DNA of 64,000 bases, taken from positions 7,874,001 to 7,938,000 of the forward strand of contig CM102285.1 in NCBI GenBank assembly GCA_046563655.1, read 5' to 3'. Every line of letters starts with the position of its first letter. Position 1 is the first letter of the stretch. Shown in pieces: positions 7,401 through 60,932 of this stretch. The notes below the pieces were generated by a model that did no database searches, was not told the origin of the DNA, and saw nothing but the letters and a program-made list of their open reading frames with translations. This DNA is from Yuukianura sp. NJ FZ-2021. Taxonomy: Eukaryota. The translations under genes were made by a program, and so were the position numbers.

Positions 7401-10400
7401 GGACATCCTTCAGTATCACAATAGGATGTTTGCAAGGATTGCTTTCAAAGACGTGCTGAAATCAACGAAACCAAATTTCATCAAAGCCAAGCCAGATTTA
7501 AGGTTAATCGCCAAATGCGGATTTCATCTTATAAGTTTTAATTACTATCAAAACTCGTTGTACAAAGTTTTTTGAAGGAGTTTGGCATTAATTCTGAGCT
7601 TTTCAAACTGAAAACTTTTCCAACCATAAACAACATTTTAGAACGTCATCACCTAAATAAAACTGATTGTTTTCCTCTCAACTGCGCTGATTTTTTATCA
7701 GGTTGAAATTGAACAAAAAACAAGGCCTTGTCTATGGTGTTCCTACTATTTGAACACGTAGAAAAAGTTTTAACTTATTTGCAATGCTTTTGAATAGTCT
7801 CACATTTAAGTGCCAAAAAGTTTACCAAAAGACTGCGAGTCATATTCACATTTTGAAATCGCCTAAGGTTAAATTCCTAAACAAGGAGGGAGGTGGAAAA
7901 TGGGCCATGAACAACTCAGCCGCCATGACAGATCATGACGAAGTGATCAAATCCTTCAAAAGCTCACCTAGGCATAACGCTCACTCATAAAAAATACTCT
8001 GTTCAGTGTTCACTGTTCAGGGATTTGATCATTAATACACGTTATAAGAAATTTTGCCAATTCCATCTCATTTGAAATCAGTTTCGAGTTCACAATCTCA
8101 ATCTAACTTTTGATTTCAAGGTAAGATGGATGGAAAGTGGATTTAGAAAGAAAGCTGTGGAAGAGTGACGTTTTTTTTCCTCTTGGTTTACGTACAAATG
8201 TCAGGGTCAAATTCTAAATCGATGAAACCTGACATTTACATTTTACTCTGTTTCTTTACATTTGCCTAAGAAAAAGTTTATGCACGTAGCACGTTACATG
8301 TGATGCTGAAAGTATGGGAGTAACTCTACGTGAAATGTGTAAATTTTTGAAAAAGTCACACACATCATATTTTTTAAAATGGATGAAAATTTAAGTAGTA
8401 GTTGTACTATAAAAGAACAACTTGTGTGCAAAAAATCGTAACCCTAGCATTGACCTCTGGGGAGTTATTCGGTGTCAAAGTCGCCATTTTGGAAATCTTG
8501 CCCCCTACGTATCTCCGAAACGGCTCAACCGATTTAGGTCATCTTGGTGTCAAAAGAAAGGGCTCACTTAGTTCTAAATCAGTTTTTAAGCAGAAGCAGG
8601 TAAGGGCTCATGGGCCCTTAATAAGGGCCTTATTAAAAAACTCAATTTTCGTCCTCGTGTTTTAGTACTTTAAACTCCGGTATAAGTGTTCCCGGCTTTA
8701 GCCCTTAAGGGTACCCTGCAAGGGCGTGAAGGGCCCACCTCCAGGACCTTAAGCGCCACCAGATAAGTAGCTAAAAATGTGAAGATTGCATGCTACCGTA
8801 TTACGGGATTTTGTCTTTCCAAAAGTTAAATATCCGGTGTCCCTTAACGTCCTGACAGTGGGCCCTTCACACCCATGCACGGTACCCTTAAGGGCTACAG
8901 CAGGGAGCACTTATACTGGAGTTTAAAGTACTAAAATACAAGGACGAAAATTGAGTTTTTTAATATGGCCCTTATTAAGGGCCCATGAGCCCTTACCCGC
9001 TTTTGCTTAAAAACACATGTAGTACTAAGTGAGCCCTTTCTTTTGACACCGAGATGACCTAAATCGGTTGAGCCGTTTCGGAGATACGTAGGGGGCAAGA
9101 TTTCCAAAATGGCGACTTTGACCCCGCATAACTCGAGAAAGGTCAACCCTAAGGTCACCAACTTTTGGTGAAATTTTTTTTTGTCTGTGTACTACCAGAT
9201 AGCAAAATCTCAAAAGGATCAAAAATGGTGATGGTTTTGGTCATTTACACATTTCACGTAGAGTTACTCGGATTTCAAGAGGAAAGTCCAAGTCAAAAAA
9301 CATTTCAAACAAATTACTTCCCCATCCCCATTCAACATCGCGTTCAATACAAATCAAAAATCGGAACTTTTAGGAAAAGCAAATCTAATCAATTCAATGG
9401 CCAGTCTCAATTCGAATCCATTGCAAATATGAAAAACATCTCGCTCGCAAATCATTCAGAACTAGAATTTTATAGCCATTTTGAATCCAAATTTTTGATT
9501 CGATAAAAATTCATCTATGTATTGCATCCATGAGCTGTCTGTACAGACTTGAGGTTAACTACGATACAAAATGCATAAAATCCCAAGTTGTGCTCGTTTT
9601 ACAAACTGCCGTTTTACTTGATGCCAGAAATTCCTAATTCTACTCGTCGTGTGATGATGTTGAAAAGGAAACTTTCCCTAATTCCTGAATCGTAATTCAT
9701 GTAATTAGAGATACAATTAAAGCCGAGCTTACAATTAATTAGTTTCTGCCCTACTTCACTTTTTCTTCTGAACACTTTCATTTTCAAGCGGAAAACTAAA
9801 AAATCACGTACAGAATACTCAGCGTTTAAAACTTTGGCGCAGAATAGCAGTTTCTATTTTCATAACAATCTTCATCATTAACACAAGCTCTCTTTAAGGT
9901 ATGACTTTGACTTGAGTCATGGATTGCAGCGCTTCGCTTGCGAATGCGCCGAATCGTAGTTAAAGAAATTATTCATAACCATTTACCGGAATAAATTGAA
10001 TGAACGCTCTTGATTAACTCACGGATGCAGATTAGATACTAAACATTACGTTAGGTAGACCGAGGAGTCATTGCGTCATGCGCGGCAGTAGTAACGACAG
10101 TTACCGGAAAAAAGATGGATGACTCACCTGGAAGTACGGACTACAGGCTGAAAGAACCAATTTGTGTGCCTGGATTCGGCGACCTTCGCTGGAAACGAGT
10201 GTCACGTCGACAAAGGACTCTTTGGTGAGGAGATGTGTGAAGAAACTAACGAAATTAGGCTGATGATTGTTCCAACGTAGGCAGTATTCACGCATGCTCG
10301 CTAGCGGCGGCGCATGGTTCCTCTGCGGAGTTCTATGGTTGCTGCTTGAGTAACTATTGTTGTTATCCATTGTTCCCCGGTTAAGTAAATTGTTAAGATT

Positions 10401-10529
10401 GGGATTGTTTCCAACGCTATTCGGATTTGAGTTCCGTTCAGTACTGTTCGTTGTGGCTCCAGAGTTATTGGCGGGACTGGAATTGTTTGACTGTGGCAGC
10501 AACGGATTTGCACATGTAGTGGCAGCCAT
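1403..10529 (-). CDS. BTB/POZ-domain transcription factor (tramtrack/bric-a-brac group), multi-exon; isoform ending in a C-terminal piggyBac-type Cys-rich finger
   Basis: Exons with GT-AG boundaries and consistent phase: 10529-10128 (YCLRWNNHQPN...VDVTL...AHKLVLSACSPYFQ), 7455-7315 (CKHPIVILKDV...FIYNGEVNI), 6868-6649 (TAGTLQVKGLAE), 6552-6308, 6222-6162 (phase 1), terminal exon 2715-1403 (phase 1; GRPLLRQPRIKR ... CNFC...YQCPECHINLCIVPCFQEYH). Start ATG inferred. Confidence 0.85.
4927..5807 (-). CDS. Alternative 3' exons of the BTB gene: acidic exon (5807-~5613) and Pipsqueak-type HTH exon (~5101-4927)
   Basis: Phase-1 acceptor at 5807 fits the 6162 donor (GYDLEIADVKMDDVDDEDE...); downstream exon KYETAITDLLTNPSLTFREAALRHGLNASSVWYHYR matches the HTH_psq pattern; exact splice sites and the end of this isoform are uncertain. 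Confidence 0.55.
8318..9269. mobile_element. Foldback non-autonomous DNA element in BTB intron
   Basis: Termini GAGTAACTCTACGTGAAATGTGTAAAT (8318) / ATTTACACATTTCACGTAGAGTTACTC (9269); long inner arms ~8440-8740 vs ~8855-9160; no clear TSD. Confidence 0.75.
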
Positions 10530-11745
10530 GTTTTCCCCTTCTTGGACAATTCGAGACCGCGTGACGCTGATCGTGCCGTGTTCCCACCTAAGTACCTGCT
10601 GATTGTCTTGTTCAATGAAAGTGACTTTGTTCGAAATCAATTGAAAATTGTTCGAAGTGTGCTGCTGAAGGTCTTGGTCGTGGAGGAGGTGTCCATTTGG
10701 CTAGTGATTTCCACTGAAGGAAGTGAAGTCGACGACGATGGGAGGACGAACAAGTTTTGTACGAACAACGAGTAAATTTCAATTTCCAAGAGTTCACATT
10801 TCTAAAAGTTTGAACTAAACTGAAAGTGCTGTTGTTTTGATATAACTTTTAGACGGTGGGGAGCAGAACAGAGACTATGATGGTAGAGGTGGTCTGAGAT
10901 CCCCCTCTCTTTCAATTGGAAATCCTTAGCGGATATACCGCTGGTGGCTGTGCAAAAAGTTCCTGTTCTGCTTCAATTTCTAATTCTAAATTGTACTCAA
11001 TCCTTCCTTGGGTAAAAAGTTGAAAAAGTGTTGCAGTTTGTATGAAAATCCACAATTCCAACAACTACTGAGCATTTGACCTAACCGCAACCTGTTCTCG
11101 ACGTTACATTCCATCTAAATGGGTTTCGCCACTTGAGAACAGCGATTTTTTCATCGCTGGTTTTTTTTTTACCTTTTTGTACAGAGGGAAGTTGTTTTGG
11201 TTAGTTGTTTGAACGGTTGAGAACAATGGTGACGTTGGTTGGTTAATGGGAAATTTCCACGTTCGGATGACCAATTTTGGATTTTTATAAAAAAGGTGAA
11301 GGATTCCAATATAGCGAAATCCTGTTCACTCGCCTCGTGTTTGAATATCCAAATTCAATTCACACAGCAGATCCCCTCTAGCCCATTGGTTCACACTGTG
11401 GAACTTTTCAACTTACGTCACAACGCACAGTCAGGGCCGTCCACAAATTTAAAAACAACTTGCTCTCTCTCCCTCTTTCATGCAGGTTTTTTAATGATTT
11501 TTCGACACGGCGCGGCGGGCCAAATACGGATCAATATTTTTCTAGGTTAGAATCCTAATTAGAATGTATACCCCTCCACAAAACAAATGAAGTTAATTAT
11601 ACTGGTTTCTTCAAAACAACAAATGTTTTTGTAAGTCTAGAATGTGGGATAAATGTGAAGCTTTTCTTAGCAAATTGAGAACAAATTGTTCATACTTGTT
11701 AAAACGCGTGCTAATTTAGTTAATTTAGGGTTTTTCCTTATACTA

Positions 11746-15308: not shown

Positions 15309-17689
15309 TTACTTCTCAAGGAGGTATTTCTTGTACAGACTTCTGCGTTCGTCAGACTCAAATTCCGGGACAAAGTGTACTGGAACGATTTCTCCGTAGC
15401 CTTCAGCTGGTGTGGGCTCTTGGAAATTGGACCTTAATTCAACAAGAGTTGCTTGTTACGCGCAAGGAATTTTATGGTAGTAACATACATACATTGTATG
15501 ATTTTAGTTACAAATAAACTTACTTAAAAGTATTGAAAGCTACATCGGGAATTGTCGACGGGAGGTCGCCGACTAAATATCGGAACTGAAAGATTCAATT
15601 GAAATAAATATTAAAAGGCAATACATAGGTACTAATTTTTGAAGAATAAAATAAAATTAATGAAATGCTTCAACTTAAAAAACTTCTACAATGCAACCTA
15701 CCTTATTATTATGCAAACAATGCATATGGTCCACAAGCATTCGAAAACATCTTATGAAGTATCGATGATCCTTGGCCAGTTTAATAAATGCTTCCCGGTC
15801 CTTCCTGGTTGGGTTTGTATTGTCAATAACTACCTAATACGCATAGTAAGTAAAAACGTTTAGACAGGACAGAGATTCAATCATTTAGATGAGTTTTTAA
15901 CAAAGAGGTAACGTACAGATTTGCCCTCCTTCATGGCGGCTTCAGCAACCTGCAGGCATTTAGGTACACTCTTCAGCGTGTCGCGATTGATATGGACGTA
16001 TCCCTTCGGTAACAAAGCTGTTTTTACGAAGCTTGATTTACCTGAAGCCGGCATACCCACCATTATAATCATCTAATTCAAAACATAGACATAGAAGTAA
16101 CTACAGTGATTACCTACATGCTCTAAGATTCAAGAGAATTCTTACCTCGTGGGAATGGGGGAAGCGAATATGCTCATTCGAATTACCACTCTCGCCTCTA
16201 TTCGTAGCTGAAGCACCGCTAAGGAGTTTTCTTGGACAGAACACTGGATCAGCAAAGGATTGTGGTCGCGAACCTTCAAAAAACTCTTCCGGTGTTTTGA
16301 ACATCAATTCTACATTCAGGGCAAAAAGACGATCAGACTTTGAATGATCCTTGATTCTACCAGCAGCGTCTCCACAGTAGAAGGACGTCGATAATTCCGG
16401 ACTCCTTCCTTGGTTATACTGTGATACAAATACTTCCCATCCTCCAGTCATTGGCTTCCTGTATTTATCCTTTTTGGTACTAACGAAAACAAGAGCAGGA
16501 ACTCCAATCTGACGAATGATAAGTTCAATCTTCCGCTTGAAACCGGCGACATCTCCTGGGTTCTTGATCCCATTTTGATTGGTGAAAATTGCAAACTTAA
16601 AGTCTGGATTTTCTCTAAAGAATGTTTGCAATTTTGGGACTGTTGATGGCGTTCGAAACACCCAGTCGTGTTCGTCTCTTGGAAAAACTTTTCCGGATTT
16701 TGTCTTGATTAGTGTTCCGTCCAAATCAAATGCTGCAACGCTTCGCTTATATTCAGTTACAGATTCATCATTAGAGAATACGAAAAAATCATCTCCCTTT
16801 ATAGCTTCCCAGTGTCCTTTTGTTGATAGAAGAGAATCCTTCCGGAATTGGTCAGCAATTGATACTGCTGAACCCTTAGGTAGGAACATCTTGGGAATTT
16901 TTAGTGGCGGACTAGCACTTTCAGATCCGGTACCCTCGAGTGCCCGTTTAGATGCCGTAGTTGCGGCTGAAGGGGAATCCGATTTCAATTCAAAACTTAT
17001 ACGGTAACGATACGAACTATCGAAGGCACCACTTGAGCCGCCAGCAAGACAAAGTTCAACAGTGTCACCCTGTGTAGCCGCAACGGTCAATCCCATGCGA
17101 ATTGGCTTCCCATTGACTCCGGAATCGTTAGCCCCAATTTGCTTTATTTCGACCTTCTGCAGAATGAGGTTTAGCGTCACTTCAACTGAAATTAGAAAAA
17201 AAAGAGTATATATGAAAGTTGTAACATTCAAACCTGAAATAAGGTTTTAATTGTTAACCGTCGAAGTGAAGCCAATCGGAATCTTTTAGTAAATAACCGT
17301 TCTAATACAAAAAAAAAAAAGAAAAAAGAGAGGAAAGTTTACAATATATGAACTGAACTTACTCTGTTGTCGCGATACTCGTGGGTCTTTGACCTTTGTT
17401 AGGCGTTGACGTCCGAGGACTAAGGTTTCCTTATTTTCTAATTGAATGGAGGGGTACTTGGAATCCTCACTCCTAAGCCAACACGACAGTAGCGGCGTTG
17501 ATGATACTTTAGCTGGACTACTCTAAAAAAAGTTCGATATAGTCGTGATATCTAGATAAGCTACAAACCGGGCCGGGAAAAGTTTTACTTTAGTCAGGTA
17601 AAGTAACAAGCTTACCCCGGCCCGCAAAACCCATTGAACATACAGTATGTACGTACTTGTTTTTATTAGTTACATACCTTTGCAGACAT
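15309..17689 (-). CDS. PNKP: Bifunctional polynucleotide phosphatase/kinase (FHA + HAD phosphatase + kinase), 7 exons
   Basis: Exons ~17689-17678, 17522-17363 (FHA: LGRQRLTKVKDPRVSRQQ), ~17185-16146 (AAFDLDGTLIKTKSGKVFP, FTNQ, KYRKP, GDAAGR, SDRLFA), 16072-~15916 (GMPASGKS, INRDTL), ~15832-15703 (VIDNTNP), ~15586-15523, 15432-15309 (FQEPTPAEGY...YLLEK*). Confidence 0.93.
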
Positions 17690-20760: not shown

Positions 20761-22114
20761 AAAAAAAAGTATACCAGGGAATAGTAATTTGAGAACTAAC
20801 ATTCTGAATGCGTTTTGGTTTATTTTGGACTGCAAAAGAAATTCATCGAGGAAGTTAGTACATAGTACCTTTTGCTTATTTGTTTTTCGTTGGAAATGGT
20901 AAGCGTTAGACGCAAGTGCTAATTTGCCGCCTCAGATCCACCACCCCATGTTGTGGCGCCCGAAGGCCATTTCTTGTTTTCTGGCACTCAGCGCCACAAA
21001 ATTCAGAGGTTTCTTTTTTTCCCTCGAAATTCCGGCGTCTCTCTTTTGGCGTCTCTCAAAATTTTGCTTTGAAAAAAAGTTCAAAATTTTGAAAAAAGCA
21101 AAATTTTGAAAAAAGTTCAAAATTTTGAAAAAATAACACAATCTGAACAATTTATGGAAGGATAGCCGCTTTTGTGAAAAACGGTAAATTTTTATTTTTG
21201 TGGACCTCTTTTTTTTTGCTAGCCATCATAATTCTGCATTTCCAGGAGGCCACCTTTAGCTTGTGAGGAACAGTAGGTGTGTAAGTGTCTATAAGTTTAC
21301 ATGATGAAAAAGTGAAATGGCCCACTCCTATATAGAAATGACCAAGTGTCAACTATGTTTACATGTTGATACAGTATCAGTTACAGTTACATTGTACAAC
21401 TGCACATTGGCGTATGAGATTGAGATAGGGATTAGTTGGTGAAAAGCAAAACTTAACCTCTTGAACCCTGAATTATTTTCCTGGTGTTTGTTTTTCCGCC
21501 CTCTTTTAATTTCTATTGGTTACCAGGGCTGACTGAATTTAAAAATTCTTACGATCCGAGGGCGACGCCATTTTTTTTTGTGGGTAGACGTAGGTAGCCG
21601 GATTTATGCGTCGAAGTTATCGCGAACAATTAACCGAAACTTAAGTACTTAATGCAACATATATTAGATACTGGATTGATTTTTAGAAAAATTTCGAATT
21701 TATTTGTGCAATTATGCTGTACTCACAAGCAAGTTACCAAAATTCTGTATTCCTTTGGGGATTAATTACCCAGCCCTGGAAGTTTGGCTTCTGTATGAAA
21801 TAGTTTGAAACATGAAGTGGCTCCACTGACGCAAAGGAATTTCCTGCAACGATCGCACCGAAAACTTGTAGTCTTCCGTATTTTCTTACGCTTACAGTAG
21901 GTGCAGTCGGACTTTCTCTTTTCTTGTTTTTGATTGACAGATTGAGTCGGGAAATGCTGCCCGATAAGTCTGTCCGTCTGTACCGTATTTGAGGGTCTTC
22001 CACGACGTCGATCTGTGCTTCGATACTTTTCAAAAATTTCTTTCAAAATCTCTTCTAGAAAATCTTTCTGTCTGCACTTTGAGCGTGGATGCAATATCTT
22101 GTAGGCTCGAAAGC

Positions 22115-22530
22115 TGTTGAGTTTAGAGGTCAAAACTTGACCTTTTCTCATATAAAGTTAGCTGACAGGTTAACTCAACCACTGATTCTCACATCTGAAT
22201 TACGATGACAAGTTGAGCTGAGGGGGAACCAAATATGACACTTCTGGTCAAAGTTATTACATAGGGGACCATCAGAACCTTTCTAGTTGCATTTGTCTTG
22301 AAGCTTCCAGAATATTCTGGAAGCTTCCCGAAAATTCTAAGCCAGTTAACAAAAGGACCCGGGAGTCCGGAAAGTCAGTTAGTCTTTTTCAAGTCTCTCT
22401 CTAGGAAACTGTCTTAATTAAAACTTAAGATCCTTTTTCTGAAGTTTCTTTTGACCAAATAAAAATCAGCAACATTGCTTAAAAAGATCCATCAATAACA
22501 AAATTAAAAAGGCGTTTAATTTTGACAACA
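22115..22530 (+). repeat. 5' LTR of copia element
   Basis: TGTTGAG...GACAACA; differs from the 3' LTR at 2 positions by manual comparison. Confidence 0.97.
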
Positions 22531-22534
22531 ACTT

Positions 22535-22546
22535 TGGTAGCAGAGG
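22535..22546 (+). promoter_or_regulatory. Primer-binding site, tRNA-iMet 3' end
   Basis: TGGTAGCAGAGG 4 nt after the LTR, complementary to the ...CCUCUGCUACCA 3' end of initiator Met tRNA. Confidence 0.85.
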
Positions 22547-22749
22547 GAGGTTCTGCGTTGCTGAAAGTGAGTTTGGCAAAAGTGAAAGTTGAAGTTAAAG
22601 TCTGTAAACTTTGGACAATAACTTGACTTTGAAAAGTAAATTCGGTAAAAGCAATCAGTTAAGGAATACTACCGTTAGTTTCTTCTAGTGGACTTGATCT
22701 TGACTTTTGGACAAACATTTTTTGAACACAAGTGAAAGTAAATTACAAC

Positions 22750-25700
22750 ATGTCTATCAGCAGTGCTCGCCCATTGTTTGACACTAAACACGTGGCAAAG
22801 TTGGACGGAACGAATTACAGCCGATGGAAAATGCAAATGACGTTGATTCTGAAGGCAGTGAAGTTGTGGGATGTGGCTTCAGGAACAGTCGTTCGTCCAG
22901 AGTCTGACGAAAACGGAGGTCAGGCGGCATGGGATGAAAAGGATGTTCAAGCACAAGCAATAATCGTGCCTACACTGAACGCAAGTCAGATGACGCATAT
23001 TGTTGGCTGTAAAACAGCAAAGGAGGTTCTGGACAAGCTGAGTGACATCAACTCCGACTCAAGTACAATCAACCGTCAACATACCTTGAGCAGCTTTTTC
23101 AATTTTAAGGTCAGTAATAAGCAAAACTTAGTTGAGGCTTACACGGAGATGGAGGAAATTTGGAGAAATTTAAAAGAAATCGGTGTTAACATGGAGGAAG
23201 ATACAGTTGTGACTAAAATTGTCTCGTCACTTCCTGAGCCACGTTATACGGCTCTGAAAAGGGCGTGGGACTCTGTACCAGCTGAGTCTCAGACAATGAG
23301 CATTCTCTTTGCTCGGTTGAAAAAGGAGCAAATTGACCAAACGAACATAGAATCAGCAGGAACTTCCAGAGAAGAAAGGAGCCGTGCTTTCAAGGCACTC
23401 TCTGAACAGGGAAAAAGGGGGAGAGAAAGTAGCCCCACCAAGGAACGGAAGAAGGGCTTCTCTTCAAAGAAATCTGGTTGTTTCTTGTGCAAATCGGAAG
23501 ATCACTGGAAACGTGACTGTCCGAAGCTGAGACAAGGAAACTCGGAGGCTTCCTCAGGAGAATCTCAGCAAAACACAAGGCCTTTCTCCAAGAAGTCCCA
23601 CCATGGGCAGGGGAAAGGGAGAGGTGGTTCTCGAGGGCGGAAGGAGAAAGAAGCTTCAAGGAATGGCTTCCTTGGACAACGGAAAGAAGGTGAAAAGTCT
23701 GGAGATGGAGAAAGTGACTTTCCCCATGCCAAGGCTTTTGTTGGTCAAGATCGTAGAAGGAAGAAAAGTGGTTCGCCAGGGCCTGGACAGGCTAGCGAAC
23801 CTTGGCCAATACGCCAGGAGGACACCTGGTATGCTGACTCTGGAGCGTCAAACCATATCTGTGGTTCCAAAGATTGGTTTGTGGATTACAAAGATTTTCA
23901 GAATCCAGAGAAAGTTGACCAACTAAACTCTACCGCCGTTGATGCCCTTGGAGAAGGAACTGTTCAGTTACTTGCACTTACTGACGGTACATGGCAATAC
24001 AAAACACTCAAGAATGTTTTGTTTATTCCTGGAGCTGTTAATCTCCTCTCAGAACTCCAGATGACTCACCTCGGATACAAGATTGAAAGAGACAGCGAAG
24101 GAGCTCGTTTTTCGCACAAACAAGGTCCTGGACCTACATGCCATGTGAGCAAAGGTATGTACGTCATGAACTTTCTCCCGGTGAAAGTTCAGCCAAAAGC
24201 ACTTCTGGCTTTCAAACAAGTCAACTTGGATGTTTGGCACCGCCGTCTCGCTCACATCAACACTGAATACATTCAGGCCAGCGTTAGACGCGGAGCTGTC
24301 TACGGAATTCCACCGGAGCAGGTCAAAGGTCAACTCCGGGAAACATGTGAAAATTGTCAATTCGGTAAACAACCCAGGAAGACTTTCAACTCAGTTCCAA
24401 AAAGAAATTCGGAACCAGGAACTGGAACCCACATGGATTTATCTGGAAAAATGAACGTCGTGTCACTGGGAGGAGCCAGCTACTTTCTCCTTCTAATTGA
24501 CGATGCAACTAACTTTCGCACTGTTTACTTTCTGGAGAGAAAGTCGGAAGCTGCAGAAGCGATCAAGGGATACATTCATTTCATGGAGAGGCAAACCGGA
24601 AACAGGATGAAGTGGGTGAGGAGTGACAACGGAGGTGAATTTGTGAATTCAACCTTGAACAAATTTTTTGAAGAAAATGGAATCATCCACGAAACTTCAG
24701 CAGCCTATTGTCCAGAAATGAATGGGAGAGTGGAGAGATCCATGAGAACATTGAAAGATACTTCAAGGGCGATGCTCCAGACTTACTCCACTCCAGATTT
24801 TCTATGGGGGGAAGCCGTTGCAACTTCTGTCTACATTCACAATCGCACCTTAAGTCGCATCTCACCGGAGCAAACGCCATTTCAGAAAATCATGGGGAGG
24901 CGACCAAACCTCGGAAATGTTCGAGTCTTCGGATGTAAAGCTTATGCCCACATTCCAGAAGCGAAACGTACAGTCTGGACACCAAAGTCCAGAAAAATGT
25001 ACTTGGTGGGTTATGATGGTGTCTGCGAGAAAAAATTTAGACTTTTTGATCCAGACAGCGCCTCCATAGTCATTGCAACTAATGTTGTTTTTGAGGAGAA
25101 GGAACCGGAAGTGAAAATTACGGAAGTGGTTGAGGAGGAGTCTGGAGAAAGTGGAGATGAAGAAAATCGTCAGTCCAGTGAGAAGAAAGAAAAACTACTG
25201 GAGAAAGAAGATGACAATGCCGAAAAGCATAACTGCCAGGATGAAGAAAATGTAGCTGGATCCTCACTTTCTCCAAAAAGTTGGAAAGTTCAACGCACGG
25301 ATGATTTGAAATTGACCATTTCAACTACTGCTGGAGATTATATTGCACAGATTCCAGCACACGCTCTGGAGCGATACAATTTCCGGCCAAGAGAAGGAAT
25401 TAAAATTCCTTCCAGATATCATGCAAATGTTGCTCGACTGGAGATCCTGGAACCGAACAATTATGAAGAAGCTCTCGCTTCGCCGCAAAAGTTAGAGTGG
25501 ATCAGAGCAATGGAAGATGAGATTAACAGTCTGGAGAAAAACAAAACCTGGAGTCTGGTTAAATGGTCTCCAGAGAAAAGAGTTCTGGACAATCGTTGGG
25601 TCTTCGCACTGAAGAGAAAGCCAGATGGAGAAATCGATCGTTACAAAGCTCGTTTAGTTTGCCGTGGATTTTGGCAGCGTCCTGGAGTGGACTTTCACGA

Positions 25701-27699
25701 TACTTATGCTTCAGTTGCTAGATACGAATCTGTTAGGATCGTTCTTGCAGTTGCCAGTGCATGGAACTACAAGATTATTCAATTCGACGTAAAGACCGCC
25801 TTTCTCCACGGAGATCTAAAAGAAACATTGTTTATGACACAGCCACATGGATTTGAAAAGGGAAAGTCGCTGATTTGTCACCTTCAGAAGTCAATCTATG
25901 GTCTCAAGCAGTCTCCGCTGATGTGGTTTGAAAAACTGAAGAAAGCACTGCAAAGTCTTGGTTTTCTCCAGCTGGAGAGTGAGCCATCAGTATTTCAAAT
26001 GGACACCGAACCTGGAAAAATTTTCATGTTGATTTACGTTGATGACGGCCTAGCTCTTGGCCCAAGACTGGAAGACCTGGAGAAAGTCGTCAGAGAATTA
26101 AACAACAAATTCCCACTGACTTTCTCCAAACCCTCAGTGTTCATTGGATTGGAACTAAACAACGGAGAAGATGGGAGCTGGAACTTGGCACAAACTGGAC
26201 AAATCAAGAAGATATTGAGGAACTTTCACCTCGAAGAAAGTAAGCCTGTCAACGTCCCCATGCAACCCAACACTACTCTACAGGTACTGGCTGGAGAAAC
26301 TGGAGGTATACCGTTCCGGGAATTGATTGGCAGTCTACTGTTTGTTGCAAGATGCACGAGACCTGACATTGCTTTTGCAGTGTCTAAACTCTCACAACAC
26401 TTGACTGGATACGACGAAAGCCACTGGAAGATGGCCAAAAACGTGGCACGTTACCTCAAGGGATCCATGGAGCTACGTCTTCCTTCCAGTCCCAGAACAA
26501 ACAAAATCACTGTAGCTGGATACTGCGACTCGGACTTTGCTGGATGTCAAAGTTCCAGGAGGTCAACCTCTGGATATGTCTTTTTTATAAATGACTGCCC
26601 GGTAAGCTGGATGAGTCAGAAACAAAACACAATCGCATTATCCAGTTGTGAAGCCGAATACGTGTCGTTAGCTGCTGCAGCGAAGGAAGCTGTCTGGATT
26701 CGGAGATTTGTGGAAGAATTGGGAATCAAAATGACAAATCCAACGCCAATTTACGTGGACAATCAATCTGCCATTAAGTTGACCCAAAACCACCAGTTTC
26801 ATAAGAATACGAAGCATATCGAACTGAGATATCACTTCACAAGAAACTTAATTGAAGAGAAACAAGTGGAGGTCACCTACGTTCAAACCGAACATCAGAA
26901 GGCAGACATATTGACTAAACCTTTGAATCGCGGGAGATTTGAATTTTGTCGCTCAATGCTTGGATTGAAGACTCAGGGAGAGCCTAATGTTAAGGCTCTA
27001 GTGGCAATTCGCTCGGAAAAAGAAGGAGGGAAGACTCTTCAGAACAGGGACCCACCGAAGGCACAGAATGGAAATTTTGAAAAAGAACAAAAAGCCATAA
27101 AGTCTGAAATTGACAAGGGTCAATTCAACCCAAAGAAAGAAAAAGGGCAAAACCGAAGAAACAGAAACCCTAAATGGAGTGTGACTACCCAAGTTTTTGA
27201 AAACTCAAAATTTGGGAAGTGGAACAAGGTTAAAGGTCAAAGCGGAAAAAGTGGACACTCAAACCATCCTTACATTGAGGTCCTTCGTCCACAAGAAAAA
27301 AGATTTTACTCAAGGGCAGCTCCACCAAACTCAAACTTTTTGAGAAGGAACCTTGTCAATTCTGGTCCACGGAAACAGGAGCCACCGTGGAACCAACATG
27401 CACATAAAAACGGCAAAAGAAAAAGGAAAGAAACGGACTTTGGAAACCCAAATCATTTCTTGAAAAGGACAAAGGGAAAGTGTTTTGGTGGGAACGATGA
27501 CTTTCTCCATGAACAAAGAAAGACTTCAAACAATTGGACATTCAAAAATCTTTCTCTCATGTTCACTGCTGGATTTCTGATGATGATATTTTTTGGACTT
27601 ATTCATGGAGCTTCCGGTGATTTCAAGTGGCTTCTCCAGTTCTATGGAAGAAAAGTGACACTCAAGTCACCAAAGGCTCAAATCAAGTGCATTTGCTGA
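22750..27699 (+). CDS. Copia Gag-Pol polyprotein (gag, zinc knuckle, PR, GAG-pre-integrase, IN, RT, RNase H) with basic C-terminal extension and hydrophobic signal-like segment
   Basis: KLDGTNYSRWK; CFLCKSEDHWKRDC; WYADSGAS; WHRRLAH..CENC; HMDL/RSDNGGEF/NGRVER; QFDVKTAFLHG, YGLKQS, YVDD; YCDSD, EAEY, DNQSA, ADILTK; uninterrupted ORF. Confidence 0.96.
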   Translation: MSISSARPLFDTKHVAKLDGTNYSRWKMQMTLILKAVKLWDVASGTVVRPESDENGGQAAWDEKDVQAQAIIVPTLNASQMTHIVGCKTAKEVLDKLSDINSDSSTINRQHTLSSFFNFKVSNKQNLVEAYTEMEEIWRNLKEIGVNMEEDTVVTKIVSSLPEPRYTALKRAWDSVPAESQTMSILFARLKKEQIDQTNIESAGTSREERSRAFKALSEQGKRGRESSPTKERKKGFSSKKSGCFLCKSEDHWKRDCPKLRQGNSEASSGESQQNTRPFSKKSHHGQGKGRGGSRGRKEKEASRNGFLGQRKEGEKSGDGESDFPHAKAFVGQDRRRKKSGSPGPGQASEPWPIRQEDTWYADSGASNHICGSKDWFVDYKDFQNPEKVDQLNSTAVDALGEGTVQLLALTDGTWQYKTLKNVLFIPGAVNLLSELQMTHLGYKIERDSEGARFSHKQGPGPTCHVSKGMYVMNFLPVKVQPKALLAFKQVNLDVWHRRLAHINTEYIQASVRRGAVYGIPPEQVKGQLRETCENCQFGKQPRKTFNSVPKRNSEPGTGTHMDLSGKMNVVSLGGASYFLLLIDDATNFRTVYFLERKSEAAEAIKGYIHFMERQTGNRMKWVRSDNGGEFVNSTLNKFFEENGIIHETSAAYCPEMNGRVERSMRTLKDTSRAMLQTYSTPDFLWGEAVATSVYIHNRTLSRISPEQTPFQKIMGRRPNLGNVRVFGCKAYAHIPEAKRTVWTPKSRKMYLVGYDGVCEKKFRLFDPDSASIVIATNVVFEEKEPEVKITEVVEEESGESGDEENRQSSEKKEKLLEKEDDNAEKHNCQDEENVAGSSLSPKSWKVQRTDDLKLTISTTAGDYIAQIPAHALERYNFRPREGIKIPSRYHANVARLEILEPNNYEEALASPQKLEWIRAMEDEINSLEKNKTWSLVKWSPEKRVLDNRWVFALKRKPDGEIDRYKARLVCRGFWQRPGVDFHDTYASVARYESVRIVLAVASAWNYKIIQFDVKTAFLHGDLKETLFMTQPHGFEKGKSLICHLQKSIYGLKQSPLMWFEKLKKALQSLGFLQLESEPSVFQMDTEPGKIFMLIYVDDGLALGPRLEDLEKVVRELNNKFPLTFSKPSVFIGLELNNGEDGSWNLAQTGQIKKILRNFHLEESKPVNVPMQPNTTLQVLAGETGGIPFRELIGSLLFVARCTRPDIAFAVSKLSQHLTGYDESHWKMAKNVARYLKGSMELRLPSSPRTNKITVAGYCDSDFAGCQSSRRSTSGYVFFINDCPVSWMSQKQNTIALSSCEAEYVSLAAAAKEAVWIRRFVEELGIKMTNPTPIYVDNQSAIKLTQNHQFHKNTKHIELRYHFTRNLIEEKQVEVTYVQTEHQKADILTKPLNRGRFEFCRSMLGLKTQGEPNVKALVAIRSEKEGGKTLQNRDPPKAQNGNFEKEQKAIKSEIDKGQFNPKKEKGQNRRNRNPKWSVTTQVFENSKFGKWNKVKGQSGKSGHSNHPYIEVLRPQEKRFYSRAAPPNSNFLRRNLVNSGPRKQEPPWNQHAHKNGKRKRKETDFGNPNHFLKRTKGKCFGGNDDFLHEQRKTSNNWTFKNLSLMFTAGFLMMIFFGLIHGASGDFKWLLQFYGRKVTLKSPKAQIKCIC

Positions 27700-29153
27700 T
27701 TAAGTTCACCTCTCCATGTGAAATGCTGGACATCAACAGCGTCCACCAGGATAATGTTCAAATGGCCAAGGAAAGATGCGAGGAGATTTATAGCAAACTT
27801 TTTACCTCAGAAATTCTAAAAATGTGTCCAACAGAAGAAACAACAGAAATTCATCACCGTCACAAAAGATTCATATTGACCGGAATCATCCTCAGTACGC
27901 TTGTCATTTCGCTGATTACAAGCATTGGACTGGGGACTGCTGCCGTCATTACTTCTGCTGGAAACAAGGTGACACTGACTGAACTTGGAAATTTGGCACA
28001 GGAACACGCAAAGAAACTGGAGGAAGTCGAAAAACGCTTGAATATCCATAGGAGAGCATTGGAGGAGTTAAAACAATTCACGGAGAAGCTTGCTGGAGAT
28101 TTCCTGGAGTCTAAGGAGAAGCAAGTAGACACAACCTTTTTGATTTCATCAATCACTGGAAGGCTTTTGATTGGAAATCAAATTCTGAAGGAGACTAATC
28201 GTCAGTGGCACACGAAAAGAAAGTTGTTCGTACCATTTCTGGACTATTTGAATTTTTCACTCCCATGTGGAAGTTCATGCCCACTGGATCTCGGAACTCC
28301 AAAGTCATGTCACATGACCTATGACAAGATGGCCATGCAAATGCGTTTCGAAGTTCCAATTTTGGATCAAAATTTGAAAGTAGTGAAAGCTGACGCTTTC
28401 TCCTTAATGCACAAGACCAAAAACCAAACTTGTGAAATCAAATCCATTGGTCCGAAGAAAGCAATTGTGTCACTAAACGAAGACTGCGTATACGGAGCCA
28501 ACTTTAAAGAACCAGCCGATGACATCCTCATCATCGCTCCAGACGCTGGATGTAGTACTTCTGGACAACTTCCTGGAATGACCAAACACTTCACTGTGGA
28601 GAAATGCTTGCCCACTCACCCTGGAGATGAGAAGGATTTTGTCCAGCTCAAACAACAAGGAGAAAACAACTACATTTACTGTTACGGAAACCAAATTACA
28701 ATCGGGGGAAAGACAACAAATTGTCCAGATCACGTTTTCCCTATTCCCAAGGAAGTCAGCATAAAAATCAATGACTACTTGTACGAGGGTTTAATCTTCG
28801 AGGGAACACACATCCAGGGACAGGACCGGATTTTCACCTCAAAAGCAAACTGGCACTTAGGTCACAAGCTAAACATGACCAATCTGCTAGAACTTCATGG
28901 GCTTCTAGATGAAGACAAGAAGCTAGAAGAAAATATGGAGAAAATGAAAATCACCCATGAAGCCTACTTTACAGAAAATCCATGGACAGGAATTGTAATT
29001 GGATTCCTAATGACGTCAATGATCGCGATTTGTATTGCACTTGGTATCTGTTACTACAGAGCTCGGAAGGAAAGAGTTCCGATTATCAAAATCACTGCTG
29101 CAAAACTTCAGGATGCTGTCAGTGAAAGCAAGAAAGAAACGGAAGAAGACTGA
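27559..29153 (+). CDS. Env-like class I membrane-fusion glycoprotein (signal segment in pol frame 27559-27621, body in ORF 27627-29153)
   Basis: MFTAGFLMMIFFGLIHGASG; RHKR|FILTGIILSTLVISLITSIGLGTAAVI; heptad LTELGNLAQEHAKKLEEVEKRLNIHRRALEELKQFTEKL; Cys-rich ectodomain with NFS/NQT/NMT sequons; TM WTGIVIGFLMTSMIAICIALGICYY; short cytoplasmic tail. Confidence 0.85.
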
Positions 29154-29375
29154 GGAACAAGATTCCAACGAGAAAAATTTAAAAGAAAAACAGAATTATT
29201 AGACTAATTCTATTTTTGTATAGATAGTTACTTCTCTACTGTAAGATATGGATTTGGGAGAGGTTAACTTACAATTAATTAGAATTAAGTTTTATTTTTG
29301 GAATAACTGTCTGTTCATCCTCTTTACAAATCTAAAACGTTGAAAGTAGGAATAACTCAGGAAAAGTCAATTTTT

Positions 29376-29384
29376 GAGGGAGAG
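29376..29384 (+). promoter_or_regulatory. Polypurine tract
   Basis: GAGGGAGAG immediately before the 3' LTR. Confidence 0.85.
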
Positions 29385-29800
29385 TGTTGAGTTTAGAGGT
29401 CAAAACTTGACCTTTTCTCATATAAAGTTAGCTGACAGGTTAACTCAACCACTGATTCTCACATCTGAATTACGATGACAAGTTGAGCTGAGGGGGAACC
29501 AAATATGACACTTCTGGTCAAAGTTATTACATAGGGGACCCTCAGAACCTTTCTAGTTGCATTTGTCTTGAAGCTTCCAGAATATTCTGGAAGCTTCCCG
29601 AAAATTCTAAGCCAGTTAACAAAAGGACCCGGGAGTCCGGAAAGTCAGTTAGTCTTTTTCAAGTCTCTCTCTAGGAAACTCTCTTAATTAAAACTTAAGA
29701 TCCTTTTTCTGAAGTTTCTTTTGACCAAATAAAAATCAGCAACATTGCTTAAAAAGATCCATCAATAACAAAATTAAAAAGGCGTTTAATTTTGACAACA
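29385..29800 (+). repeat. 3' LTR of copia element
   Basis: Direct repeat of 22115-22530. Confidence 0.97.
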
Positions 29801-30239
29801 AAAGCTGTTGTACAAAGTGTAATCCCACAGATGAAAGAAGGTCTTGCGATACCATTTGAGGGTCTTCCGTTTGCTTTGGAGTGGCCGCATCACTTTGTCG
29901 ACGTCATCAACCCCGCCCATCTTAGAATTGTAGACAAGTACACTTGTTGGTTTCATTCGAGTGTTGTTTGGATTCAATGATGGGGCAAGCTTCATCTCGT
30001 GAGGAACAAATGTACTGATCATGCAGACTTCACGTCGATCTTTCCACCTAAATAAATATAAAGTAAATTGGACTTAGTAATTTGTTTGGTTCAGAATTTG
30101 TTTGGAAGTAACTTATTATTAATTATAAGTGATCCACTAACCGCTCAATTAGGATCCCCCATTTCGTAAAGCTTCTGATGTCACCAAGCGGCTGTGTCCA
30201 TAAGTGTCCGAGGAACTAAAAATCTGAGGGTGTAAAGCG

Positions 30240-33199: not shown

Positions 33200-34590
33200 T
33201 CTAGTCCCATTAGTTTCTGATGGGATAATAAGATAACCTTCTGACAAAAGTTTCTTTGCTCTCAGCTTTGGTAAGAATATCCGCGGGTTGGATGCTGTTT
33301 GCAGTTTGTTGCAACGTAACTACCTTCTTGTCCATCAAATTGCGGATGTAATGGTGGAGAATGTCAATGTGCTTGGTTTGGTGTTATCGTGATATTCCGG
33401 TTTTTTCGAGAGTTTGATGGCACTTTGTGAATCTGTGTTTAGAATAATTTGCTGTTGAAGGCGATCGCACCCAGCAAGGTTTTGGTCACAGCCAAATTGA
33501 TACTTTTCTTGTATGACCAAGGCGATGTATTCCGCTTCAGTGCTGGATAGAACGATAAAATCATCGTCCGAATGGCTCAATACAAAATTTCATTTCCCTT
33601 GATTTTGATGTTGCCAGTTTTCTATGGAAAACACTAAAAAAGGACTAGAGATCGCAAACTCACTTCTTGTGTCAAATGTCAAATTTTCAAATAATTTACT
33701 TTTAATTGTGAAATCTATGTTATCACGCTTGCTGAACTCGAATATGATAATTAAAAAATTCAAAAATCGATTCCTAATTAGTTATTTAATTAAAATTGTT
33801 TGTTAATTAACATTTTCCTAATTAAGATTGCAATACAAGCTTTAGGGATGAGATTTGTTGCTGAAAACGAATTTGACCTTTAACATGCTGAAAAACCGAT
33901 TCCTAATTAGTTAATTAAAATCGTTAATTAACATTTCTCTAATTAAGGCTGCAGTACAACTTTAGGGATGAAATTTGGTTGCTGAAAACGAATTTGACCT
34001 TTAAAATGCTGAAAAACCGATTCCTAATTAGTTAATTAGCTAAAATCGTTAATTTGCATTTCCCTAATTAAGGCTGCAATGCAAGTATTAGGGATGAAAT
34101 TTGATTGCTGAAAACGAATTTGGCCTTTTAAATGCTGAAAAACCGATTCCTAATTAGTTAATTAATAAAAATCGTTTTAATTCGAATCGGTTTAGGTAAT
34201 TCCAATGAATTCTTGCCAACTGTTTGTTTGAACAGTTTTTGGAGTTCAATTAAAGCTTGCTTATTTTCTCTGACAGCATTTCCAATGATTATTCCATCAT
34301 CAACGTAAATTAACAAAAAGTGATACTGTCGCATTTTACCCTATTGTACATACGTTCTGATATAAGACGGTGAAAGCCAAGTTTTCGGAGTTCAGAGATT
34401 GCTACGTTGATCCAACAACGCGGAGATTGTTTGAGTCTATATAGACGCTATTCCATTATGCAGACTTAATTGTCGCCTACCGTGTATGTAGTACCATGAA
34501 CCTCAAATCATTCTGATGGTTCCATAAAAATTTCGTCGTCCAGAGTGCTATTAAGAAAGGCGGTTGAAATGTCAAATTGTACCATGCCCT
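33200..34590 (-). pseudogene. Degraded copia RT-RNase H fragment, interrupted by a tandem repeat
   Basis: QFDISTAFLNSTL, YRLKQSPRCW, LIYVDDG at ~34590-34210; SSTEAEYIAL, DSQSAIKL, QPADILTK at ~33570-33200. Confidence 0.8.
33760..34185. repeat. ~122-128 bp tandem repeat, about 3.5 copies
   Basis: Units begin AAAAACCGATTCCTAATTAGTTAATT near 33762, 33891, 34012, 34138. Confidence 0.85.
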
Positions 34591-58599: not shown

Positions 58600-60666
58600 T
58601 CAAACTTTTTGAGAAGGAGCCGTAGGAAGACGACGACGGTTGATAGGCCGTCGAAGTTTCGGTTTGCGTAAATGGCGAGTCAACATAACAATTTCTCGTT
58701 CGGTCAATGGAAGAGACTCGTTTTCAGAGTCGCTAAAATTATTTCGTTTTTTGGGCTTTTCCTTTTTTGAAATTCCAATTTTGTTAAAAATGATGCGCCA
58801 AATCTTGACAAAAGTAGAACGATTTTTGTAAACGTATTTCAAGAGTAACATCAGTAAGAAAATAGCCAAACTCAACATGCAAATTGTAGCCAAAACATTT
58901 TGAAAAGGAGTCAAGATGAATTCTCGTAAAAGTGTAATGGTTTTCTTTTCATTTGGACCAAAATTCCCATTTCTATTTTTCAAAATGTTGTCAATTTTGT
59001 TTTGGTGGGAAAGATCTTTCAAAATTTGCGCAATCGTTTCTGCTCCACCTAGTTCATCTACAGAATACACTCCTGGAGAAGAAAATGATAAGTCGGGCAT
59101 ATTCTCTAATTTTGAGTCATCATAATTTGCAGGCAAAACTGTTAAATTTTCAATGACAGTTCTGTTGGTCAAGTGAACAGTCATTCCTGCGTAATCAAAA
59201 TAAAAATTTGGAGCCGGGCATTTAGTATTAGTTGGCTCCATAACTATTTCATGGTTTAATCCTGTCAAGTACCCTTCCTTTTTATCTACTCCATGAAAGA
59301 ACATTATGGGCCATTCGAGATAACGTCCGGTTTGAGGCAAAAGCATATACGTATCAATTTCGTCGCATTTATAAATGGATAAAATATCTCCGTTAGTCTT
59401 TGCTCTCAATGCTGGGTTTTTAAGGAGAGTGCGAACCAAAACACTAGGCTGTCCACGTCCAGACGCGGCCAAAACGCGTAACAATTCTAAATGATTCTGA
59501 TGGGCTTTACAGGTATCTCGATGAACTGTCTGAATTCAAAATGATAGGAAGTTGCCACAATTTGATAGAGATAGAGTAATTTACTGTTTAATTCCGCATT
59601 GGTAACTAATTTAGGTGTTTCCGGCAATTCTTGCTTAGGTAAAATTAAATCTGGTAAAAAAGCTAGTTCTTTAGTAGAAAATCCGCTCGTAGACTTGAGT
59701 CCAAGTTCAGTGTCATTTAAATCTAGTTCGCCATCATTTAATTCAATTTCAAGATCAGTTTCATTTAGAGAATTCTGCTCAATCTCTCTTTTATAGCGAG
59801 TTGGTCTGTTAATTTTTCCTTGGTCAAATTTGTGAAAGAAATGCCTAATTCCCATGAATTGTTTTTTTCAGTGAAAATTATGCCTTGGGCAGACGTTCCA
59901 AAAGTTAATCCACATTTTTTCACAGTAATAATTTTCGTTATAGCCAATTCAAGAGTTGGGCAAGAGAGTCTCCCATCCGTGTAAAGACAAGTGGCTGAGT
60001 CACCTTCTTTCAAGCGACAGAATTTGACTTCTCCTGGCAACCAAACCAAAATTCCATTTTCAGTTTCGCAACTGCCTTGTCGATACTTACATTGACCTAA
60101 AGTTTTTGCAGTAGTAATAATAGTGTCATCTGTATTGGAAACAGAAAGAGTAAGAGCCACCATAAAGTAATTAGTCACTGTTTTATAATCTGAGCCTAAC
60201 CAGTAATAATCAAAATTCAAAACTTCATTTGTACCAAAAAATCCATCAGAAATTCTGTCCAATTTTTGTTGACTTGATACCGGACTCGCATGTGTTCTAA
60301 CCATGAGACGACAATGTTTTTTCAGTCACCGGAACTCTATATTTTAGGTAAAATTTGTCTTTTTTTGCCAAAGAAATGCCTATAAGTTTTAACCTCCTGA
60401 ACTTCCATGAAACACTCATAACCTTGAAAATTCTGCATGCTAATATCAGTCCAGAAAAGCGTTATATCAACCAATTTCGAAGGTTTTTCAGTTGCTACCA
60501 GTGGACATTTGATTGGCGGAGGCAAACGCCAAGGAATTCCTGCCGTGTACCCCCTACAATAGTACAAAACTTCAGATTTTGTATCAAGTTTTGTAAACAA
60601 TTGATACACTGGTGAATCTTGGGAAGTTGAAAAAGAAATAAAAATAAGTATCCACCAAATCTCCAT
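58600..60666 (-). pseudogene. Class III fusion glycoprotein env (gB/mononegavirus G-like), 3 frameshifts
   Basis: Signal MEIWWILIFISFSTS; YYC..W.LP..C; GYEC..YRHFFG and YYWLGS (bipartite fusion-loop-like); RPTRYKR furin site; ELNSKLLYLY helix; PSVLVRTLL...AKTNGDILSIYKC; TM VLATICMLSLAIFLLMLLLKYVY. Confidence 0.8.
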
Positions 60667-60932
60667 GTTAGAAGTCGAGAAAACAATGAAAAGAAAACCG
60701 AAATGGAAGAAAACAAATTAATACTATCTTAGTTTTTTCAATTAGATAATTAAAGGCTGCTTAAAATTAGTTTGATGTCTGAATCTTGATAAAATGCTAC
60801 GTAAAACTATTTTGATTCCTGAATCTTGCTTGAATTTTGATTTGACGGTTTGAAACTTGATTTCTGAAATATAACACACAAACAAACGATATCAAATTTA
60901 GTACTTTTTTAGAAAAATTTGTTGCTTTTAGT

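Follow-up and report, generated by a model that had tools for sequence, protein, structure and literature searches.

A young Ty1/copia element of Yuukianura sp. with a putative class I fusion glycoprotein gene, probably a member of a long-standing env-bearing animal copia lineage

The DNA analysed here, referred to as the window, is a stretch of 64,000 nucleotides from Yuukianura sp. NJ FZ-2021 (GenBank assembly GCA_046563655.1, contig CM102285.1, positions 7,874,001 to 7,938,000 of the forward strand). Positions 22115-29800 of the window are occupied by a Ty1/copia retrotransposon of 7,686 bp, recently inserted and almost intact, in which an envelope (env) gene lies 3' of pol. The element is probably (at a probability of about 0.72) a young member of a monophyletic lineage of animal copia elements that has long carried the gene of a class I, paramyxovirus F-like fusion glycoprotein. 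The single gag-pol-signal peptide-env reading frame of the lineage and a one-base break of that frame in the present copy are new here.

Results

Env homologues in copia and gypsy-type elements

The env frame was compared with 1.84 billion representative proteins in an exhaustive search, which returned 533 homologues at E ≤ 1e-3, 285 at E ≤ 1e-10 and 111 at E ≤ 1e-30; because of the 533 homologues, chance was excluded as the origin of the env open reading frame (ORF). A word-indexed protein search gave no match for env, as against the 533 of the exhaustive search; no relatives were found with the env and pol queries in a viral contig collection, and none with the window env in a metagenome contig collection. 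The best match (P0001) was 49% identical over env residues 2-505 and carried RNase H, linker, signal peptide and env in one uninterrupted protein. Since P0001 is continuous there, the frame break of the window sits exactly between the signal peptide and the mature env.

Pfam models were run on 26 long matches. Sixteen were copia polyproteins (RVT_2, Retrotran_gag_2) with a C-terminal env, and the other 10 were gypsy-type (RVT_1, RT_RNaseH, Integrase_H2C2), their env matches being less close (25-30% identity). When 150 listed matches of the 533 were compared with the pol parts by BLASTP, 32 were copia-linked, four weakly copia-linked, 24 gypsy-linked and 90 consisted of env only. The gypsy-linked env matches had E values of 1e-39 to 1e-31 in the exhaustive search, and the env of a gypsy-type polyprotein was homologous end to end to the window env (23% identity, E 7e-42). 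The relatives were mostly plain ORFs on metagenome or read-assembly contigs of 2-8 kb. The furin-type motif R-x-[KR]-R was kept in 42 of the 57 relatives covering the site and was followed by a hydrophobic segment in all 42, and each of the 12 ectodomain cysteines of the window was kept in at least 94% of the aligned relatives.

The occurrence of env in further copies, which a first-pass annotation of the element had named as a test of its own proposal, was confirmed: env was present in other copies and in 33 divergent copia elements. One of the relatives, on a metagenome contig (L001), has long terminal repeats (LTRs) identical over 359 bp, the same primer-binding-site core as the window element, an identical polypurine tract and a single gag-pol-env ORF of 1,900 aa; no target duplication was found around it, the flanking five bases being different. 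L001 is very compactly arranged, in that the 3' LTR supplies the env stop codon with its first three bases (6735-6737) and the polypurine tract (6726-6734) lies inside the env coding sequence. Env-bearing copia proteins with named hosts came from Orchesella dallaii (P0008, P0017) and Folsomia candida (P0010, P0024). The public labels of these springtail proteins mention only Copia or an RT-domain protein, and public springtail "Copia protein" entries contain a viral-type glycoprotein that is not annotated.

Phylogeny of the env-bearing copia elements

A search with the reverse transcriptase (RT)-RNase H region of the window gave 120 listed pol relatives, of which 24 carry env according to the env profile. 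Among the matches listed, every pol relative at least 46% identical to the window carries env, and the nearest carry PF07727. The RT-RNase H (RT-RH) tree was built from 68 rows: the window, 33 env-bearing copia elements (the 24 env-bearing listed matches and nine long matches of the env search), 26 env-less copia elements and eight outgroup copia elements, the last two groups being 34 of the 96 env-less pol matches. The outgroup consisted of plant (four), algal, fungal and oomycete copia and held no sirevirus, gypsy or BEL reference. All 34 env-bearing rows formed one clade (SH-like approximate likelihood ratio test, 100 in a quick tree and 100/99 in a careful tree), and a single env change was found in 100% of 200 bootstrap trees. 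The clade was nested among env-less animal copia, with the eight non-animal copia outside. Grouping of the RT with copia, another test set by the first-pass annotation, was thus obtained in a tree without a gypsy or BEL outgroup, the window RT-RH lying among animal copia. Because the pol-env junction recurs in 34 independent elements, an origin of these junctions as assembly chimeras is unlikely.

The unrooted env tree (48 rows) included 23 of the 32 copia-linked matches, nine with short env coverage having been dropped, and all 24 gypsy-linked matches. It divided 24 copia-linked rows and one gypsy-linked row from 23 gypsy-linked rows, with two changes, and none of 500 shuffles was as low. Env and RT-RH distances of 29 elements were correlated (Mantel r 0.68), to a degree that none of 5,000 permutations reached; env is the faster-evolving of the two (mean p-distance 0.68 versus 0.52 for RT-RH). 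Because there is one env-bearing clade and env and pol distances co-vary, env has, to judge from these trees, long travelled with the lineage and is an old trait of the whole copia clade.

Since env is common to copia and gypsy-type elements, at least one exchange between superfamilies would have taken place. The gene has probably moved between retroelement superfamilies rather than come fresh from a virus, the unrooted tree giving no direction for the transfer. The first proposal, an independent capture of an F-type gene by an animal copia lineage, is essentially supported and turns out wider than supposed, since the trait belongs to a whole copia clade and not to this family alone; a fresh viral origin is less probable in view of the homology with gypsy-type env.

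Similarity to class I fusion proteins

A profile of 35 relatives gave Fusion glycoprotein F0 chains as best PDB matches (E 1.7e-5). Widening the profile to 76 relatives gave F proteins in each of the first 33 rows and in 50 of the 60 listed (best E 3.4e-6), among them those of human metapneumovirus (hMPV) and Langya henipavirus. The basic site of the profile was in register with the F cleavage site and was followed by the fusion peptide and heptad repeat A (HRA). Fusion_gly, the commonest Pfam glycoprotein family among the relatives, was recognized in six of the 76 (best E 1.1e-6). In the ESM Atlas, the clusters nearest by language-model features to two homologues, P0050 and P0012, were Fusion_gly/F0 clusters (0.97/0.96 and 0.95/0.94) and Baculo_F clusters (0.95 and 0.92); for both homologues, 12 of the 30 feature matches belonged to the Fusion_gly set.

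In class I F proteins HRA and heptad repeat B (HRB) form a six-helix bundle, and the homotrimer has head domains I-III and a stalk. The predicted layout of env, with a small N-terminal fragment and the whole head between HRA and the transmembrane (TM) anchor, is that of F and not that of retroviral surface and transmembrane subunits (SU/TM). The env protein was filed as F-like in how it would work, with a putative F fold, and we infer a fusogenic and infectious function from its sequence.

Env of the Yuukianura copy

The env signal peptide MFTAGFLMMIFFGLIHGASG is encoded in the pol frame at 27559-27618 (+), and homologous signal peptides stand directly before a conserved PV.W motif in the relatives. 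In this copy a frame break follows (27619-27626, +), where a TGA at 27618-27620 closes the env frame upstream. The env frame is open from 27621 to 29153 (+), for 510 codons from stop to stop or 476 from the first ATG at 27723. Its F2-like part (27621-27869) has three conserved cysteines and ends in RHKR (27858-27869, env residues 80-83). The putative fusion peptide of 30 hydrophobic residues (27870-27959, residues 84-113) corresponds to a hydrophobic 22-mer found after the site in 42 of 42 motif-bearing relatives. The next region (27960-28220, helix-prone to residue ~200) is HRA-like, the family profile aligning there to HRA of F0 chains. It is followed by a Cys-rich head with nine cysteines and two sequons (28221-28871), a charged membrane-proximal stretch that is a candidate HRB by position (28872-28979), and the C-terminal part (28980-29153) with the predicted transmembrane anchor (to 29063, residues 454-481), a 29-residue tail and the stop codon. 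The ectodomain as a whole has 12 cysteines and three N-X-S/T sequons.

An ORF of ~510 aa inside the LTRs with RHKR, a fusion peptide of ~27 residues, a Cys-rich glycosylatable ectodomain, a transmembrane segment and a tail had already been described in the first-pass annotation, and all were recovered, with 30 residues measured for the hydrophobic stretch. The env start had been placed at 27559; this is actually the signal-peptide ATG in the pol frame, and the env frame opens after the TGA. The type I topology is represented in this copy by the transmembrane segment and tail, with the signal peptide out of frame here and in frame in the relatives.

Contigs of four public DNA runs (X1-X4, from two coded organisms and two studies) were aligned to the element. 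In all four runs, the contigs that span position 27623 show a one-base length difference from the window there, and account for a depth of 170.4 of 313.7, 6.95 of 11.9, 138.6 of 138.6 and 54.1 of 54.1, respectively. In the first two runs the rest of the depth came from contigs ending at 27623, whose loose ends seemed by eye to read as the spanning contigs do. Because contigs of four of the four runs differ from the window at this position, either the frame break belongs to this copy alone or it is a slip of the assembly. For the family as a whole, one gag-pol-signal peptide-env frame of ~2,134 codons is predicted from these sequences. This copy alone probably makes no secreted Env. Programmed frameshifting at 27620 was considered and dropped, as the run contigs differ by one base there and no slippery heptamer was visible.

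Gag-pol

The gag-pol ORF (22750-27699, +; 1,649 aa) ends 27 codons past the signal peptide in this copy. It encodes Gag with a Retrotran_gag_2 capsid and a CCHC knuckle (22837-23526; Pfam E 7.4e-28 and 9e-4), an aspartic protease (PR) region matching Pol_BBD (23827-24078, residues 360-443; E 1.2e-18) with DSG at 23836, and an integrase (IN; 24154-25107) with gag_pre-integrs, rve (residues 555-654) and SH3_retrovirus matches (E 3e-9, 7e-9 and 3.5e-21) and HHCC and D,D,E motifs. These are followed by a reverse transcriptase of the RVT_2 type (25540-26265, residues 931-1172; E 2.6e-55, 188 bits against a cut-off of 31.6) with YVDD at 26035. RNase H (RH), with D/E/D motifs at residues 1260-1340, and the usual copia Pol C-terminus, with ADILTKPL at 26902, occupy 26500-26949; no Pfam model matched the RNase H part, which was assigned by its motifs and by alignment with copia relatives over residues 900-1400.

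The domain order PR-IN-RT-RH, with integrase before reverse transcriptase, is the copia order. The gypsy-type features (RVT_1, the order RT-RH-IN and Integrase_H2C2) were absent from the window pol. The copia order and the intact catalytic motifs given by the first-pass annotation were thus found again in the Pfam matches and in the translation, and the gag-pol of this copy looks competent by sequence. Between the Pol C-terminus and the signal peptide a basic, low-complexity linker of ~203 codons (26950-27558, +) is open in the pol frame. Its length ranges from ~10 to 200 residues among the relatives, and by rough arithmetic from the base composition of the window the chance of so long a linker without a stop is ~1e-6.

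Element ends, insertion site and age

The element is flanked by a target-site duplication, AAAGC, at 22110-22114 and 29801-29805. The empty-site joint, from 22109 to 29801 with 7,691 bases skipped, was present in contigs of three of the four runs; because these contigs join the two positions in an uninterrupted host repeat, the insertion ends are fixed. The LTRs, identified by direct-repeat comparison, are 416 bp long (22115-22530 and 29385-29800, both +) and run from TGTTG to CAACA, the 5' LTR having TATAAA at 22151 and AATAAA at 22458. The TG...CA ends and the 5-bp target duplication are those of a Ty1/copia element. Each LTR also contains a 28-base perfect palindrome, its own reverse complement (22300-22327 and 29570-29597).

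The primer-binding site TGGTAGCAGAGG (22535-22546, +) begins four bases past the 5' LTR, and 11 of its bases recur behind the 5' LTR of L001. We take TGGTAGCAGAGG to be complementary to initiator tRNA-Met at its 3' end, the tRNA that usually primes copia elements; no tRNA gene was found within the 64-kb window. Priming by initiator tRNA-Met is stated in general terms in the part considered of the Pseudoviridae profile of the International Committee on Taxonomy of Viruses (ICTV; PMC8515867). The polypurine tract GAGGGAGAG (29376-29384, +) lies directly before the 3' LTR, as does the identical tract in L001.

The LTRs differ at two of 416 bp (22271 and 22411), and contigs at least 99% alike made up 24 of 59 (X1), 11 of 23 (X2), 35 of 67 (X3) and 19 of 43 (X4) of those aligned to the element. 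The element is young because of these two mismatches and the many contigs at least 99% alike, as the first-pass annotation had also held. In X2 and X3, contigs pass from 22563 to 22767 and lack the 203 bases between, among them the gag ATG region; variants of the family with another leader are their probable source.

The insertion hit a minus-strand gene for a piggyBac-like transposase, which the copia element splits into 21762-22151 and 29786-30073. Pfam recognized DDE_Tnp_1_7 at 29786-30070 (E 4.8e-12) and a DDE_Tnp_1-like zinc finger at 21765-22151 (E 7e-4, below the cut-off). Uninterrupted paralogues of this ORF, ~7% divergent, were found in three of the four runs.

Neighbouring features

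A host exon at 16110-17246 (-) encodes PNK3P (polynucleotide kinase 3'-phosphatase, PNKP; E 2e-48). Its nearest named relatives were the proteins of the springtails Orchesella cincta (42%) and Allacma fusca (41%), with insects next, which places the host in the arthropods, probably as a springtail-like hexapod. A BTB domain ORF lies at 10101-10700 (-; E 1e-10). Degenerate copia RT/RNase H fragments at 33246-34585 (-) are 34-41% identical to the pol of the element; their best match is to an env-bearing subclade, not clearly, and no env remnant was found beside them at 33.2-34.6 kb. At 58600-59535 (-) and 61522-62415 (-), an ORF matching Monjiviricetes_fusion (Pfam E 1.1e-6) has upstream of it an ORF whose match is to a Tf2-1-like integrase SH3 domain (E 2.4e-4, below the cut-off). 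By sequence, these ORFs (58600-62415) look like a broken second retroelement with a different glycoprotein; the interval 50-64 kb yielded no LTR pair.

Discussion

Weighing the evidence

Several observations weigh against the reading of the element as a young member of an animal copia lineage that has long carried an F-like fusion glycoprotein gene. The F match of the family profile covers only ~100 residues (profile positions ~82-197), in part a coiled coil, which is prone to spurious matches, and 10 of the 60 listed rows were other helical proteins. The window env alone gave no Pfam match at E ≤ 0.1, and its best PDB match (E 0.32) was to an unrelated protein. The Atlas result is not for the window protein, as P0050 and P0012 are only 27% and 35% identical to the window env; their structural neighbours had TM-scores below 0.5, except for one short match, and the models were poor (predicted local distance difference test, 0.57 and 0.53). 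Heptad periodicity above chance was not seen, a crude score being reached by 99 of 300 shuffles; the heptad repeat of the first-pass annotation is a putative one, supported by the alignment of the profile to HRA of F0.

The env of this copy is out of frame with its signal peptide. A host is named for two species only, most relatives being from unnamed assemblies. Either a polyprotein or a spliced RNA may be the source of Env, both routes being candidates with neither favoured. Lastly, P0043, a gypsy-linked env with a confirmed gypsy-type integrase, stands among the copia-linked envs, and because of this grouping env would have moved more than once; constraining the copia envs to a single clade costs 0.04 log-likelihood units and is not rejected (approximately unbiased (AU) test, p 0.49).

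Among the rival explanations, the one that survives best, though it is unlikely, holds that env encodes a genuine, conserved membrane glycoprotein of a non-infectious element, which tethers Gag-Pol or assembly to internal membranes, blocks re-entry or acts intracellularly. It agrees with the ICTV profile, which in the part considered describes pseudovirids as being without an extracellular phase, and with a polyprotein layout that would leave Pol anchored in the endoplasmic reticulum (ER) by the signal peptide; the transmission of the lineage, moreover, is itself only inferred. A furin-type site with a directly adjoining hydrophobic peptide in 42 of 57 relatives and 12 kept cysteines are, however, the signature of a primed fusogen and not of a tether, and the profile matches are to viral F proteins. 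In addition, the homologous gypsy-type env belongs to a class for which infection is documented in Drosophila, according to the part considered of Chary & Hayashi (eLife 2026; PMC13524379).

Still less probable is an env that is not of the F type at all and has a different fold sharing the cleavage site, the hydrophobic peptide and the coiled coil. The confinement of the F similarity to profile positions ~82-197 speaks for such a fold, as do weak Pfam matches to TLV_coat (three of 76 relatives) and CoV_S2 (two of 76) and coronavirus S clusters (0.91-0.92) among the Atlas neighbours. These are opposed by the layout, in which an N-terminal fragment of ~80 residues, a large C-terminal one and a Cys-rich head between HRA and the transmembrane segment are arranged as in F and not as in SU/TM or a spike, by the F0 chains filling the top 33 profile rows, by the first place of Fusion_gly among the Pfam glycoprotein families of the relatives (6/76), and by its share of the Atlas feature neighbours (12 of 30 for both homologues).

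The broken frame of this copy and the remains of another env-bearing retroelement in the window might suggest that env is an artefact (a gypsy-type fragment nested here, or an assembly chimera) or a passenger in decay. This reading is scarcely credible and already contradicted: a single LTR pair with a single target duplication encloses env, and no further LTR pair is present; the order is repeated, mostly in one ORF, in 33 divergent copia elements; L001 has identical LTRs and an uninterrupted ORF of 1,900 aa; env and pol distances co-vary; and the 510 env codons contain no stop.

Production and possible role of Env

Under the preferred explanation, that of a copia lineage with its own F-like fusion protein, the element would be transcribed from the 5' LTR, and in intact copies the ribosomes finishing Pol would run on into the signal peptide; because there is no stop between pol and env, they must translate into it. 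The signal peptide is embedded in the polyprotein in copia-linked and gypsy-linked relatives alike, in many of them without a Met at or near it, and that of the window begins with ATG. This internal signal peptide would insert Env into the ER, and signal peptidase would release it. Internal signal peptides thread the glycoproteins of flavivirus and hepacivirus polyproteins into the ER.

A spliced env mRNA may add to the supply of Env. The candidate 5' splice donor, GTGAGT at 22567-22572 (+), lies in the leader upstream of the gag ATG and is the only GT[AG]AGT in the 7,686-bp element; the same AGTGAGTTT occurs in the leader of L001 at 859, and retroviruses place the splice donor of their env mRNA in the leader. 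Simple scans for splice acceptors upstream of the signal peptide gave weak candidates only. A furin-like protease would then cut after RHKR and free the fusion peptide. With trimeric Env on membranes, copia particles could acquire an envelope on budding and enter adjacent cells by fusion, passing for instance from soma to germline, by analogy with errantivirus Env in Drosophila.

A bolder proposal, which we regard as possible but doubtful, is that the springtail Copia clade consists of true enveloped copia retroviruses that make Gag-Pol-Env as one polyprotein. The internal signal peptide would thread Env into the ER and leave Gag-Pol anchored at the Env membrane, which would couple assembly to envelopment. 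If true, such a polyprotein route would be a way of producing Env not described for LTR retroelements, and cell-to-cell or animal-to-animal spread would explain how one Copia clade replaced the others in springtails.

Significance

The origin of retroviruses is commonly traced to an LTR retrotransposon that acquired an envelope gene. Documented env captures in animals concern Ty3/gypsy and BEL/Pao elements, the latter with glycoproteins that are F-like in Roo or chuvirus-like G. If the reading given here is true, all three LTR superfamilies have taken a step towards an enveloped virus, and the same fusogen family has moved between superfamilies. The lineage would be a compact system in which a single ORF (~1,900-2,100 codons) provides cytosolic Gag-Pol and a lumenal glycoprotein from one frame. 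It may account for the unusual Copia repertoire of springtails, which is specific to that taxon, and it suggests that copia elements can also behave like enveloped viruses.

Comparison with known systems

Full-text literature searches, with subscription journals and Repbase notes outside their reach, found no description of an F-type env in copia, nor was one found in the parts considered of the eLife 2026 survey, the papers on bdelloid ORF3, Lamellibrachia LTR elements and GalEa, and the ICTV profile. The part considered of a paper on basal-hexapod RNA viromes (PMC6955108) did not mention glycoproteins. A prior description of the family, which the first-pass annotation had counted among the possible objections to its proposal, was accordingly not met with in the literature searched.

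In the part considered of a study of five springtail genomes (PMC11889832, Mob DNA 2025), all Copia elements form one taxon-specific clade, CoCol, of 40 sequences, with the Repbase element Copia-2_FoCa-I of Folsomia candida as a reference. CoCol and the env-bearing clade have springtail hosts in common (F. candida, Orchesella). CoCol was defined from RT/RNase H alone, and no glycoprotein, additional or third ORF is mentioned in that part of the study. We suspect from the shared host species that CoCol is the env-bearing copia clade.

Plant Sireviruses resemble the window element in having a copia backbone and a coding region downstream of pol. They differ from it in their plant host and pol lineage, whereas the window element has an arthropod host and an env with profile similarity to viral F. 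The same part of the ICTV profile (PMC8515867) that gives Pseudoviridae no extracellular phase treats the env-like ORF of plant sireviruses as doubtful.

Paramyxovirus and pneumovirus F0 (PF00523) share with the env protein a type I topology, a basic site before the fusion peptide, HRA, a large head, a membrane-proximal stretch, a transmembrane segment and a short tail. In contrast to F0, the window protein alone has no detectable similarity and its head is not alignable by sequence; env is also encoded by a retroelement and not by a negative-strand RNA virus, and a gene for an attachment protein is absent. The baculovirus F/Ld130 protein (PF12259) is another F-like fusogen. Baculo_F clusters were among the Atlas neighbours, no Baculo_F match was found among the 25 Pfam families listed for the 76 relatives, and the backbone differs.

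Also close in organization are the errantiviruses of Drosophila and the 'ancient errantiviruses', described in the part considered of Chary & Hayashi (PMC13524379) as Ty3/gypsy elements with an F-type env. That survey used gypsy POL queries and kept only elements classed as Ty3/gypsy, and a fused or in-frame pol-env is not mentioned in the part considered. The backbone of the window element, in contrast, is copia (PR-IN-RT-RH, RVT_2, a copia-type gag and a putative primer-binding site of the initiator tRNA-Met type). In eight gypsy-type sequences (P0053, P0073, P0076, P0101, P0102, P0104, P0105 and P0110) the integrase runs straight into a signal peptide and an F-like env in one frame, often without a Met. 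The gypsy-type relatives thus embed the signal peptide in the pol frame as the copia lineage does. Errantiviruses and the window element are alike in being LTR retroelements in which env stands at the 3' end, diverges with pol and encodes a protein of F-like layout with a furin site and a fusion peptide.

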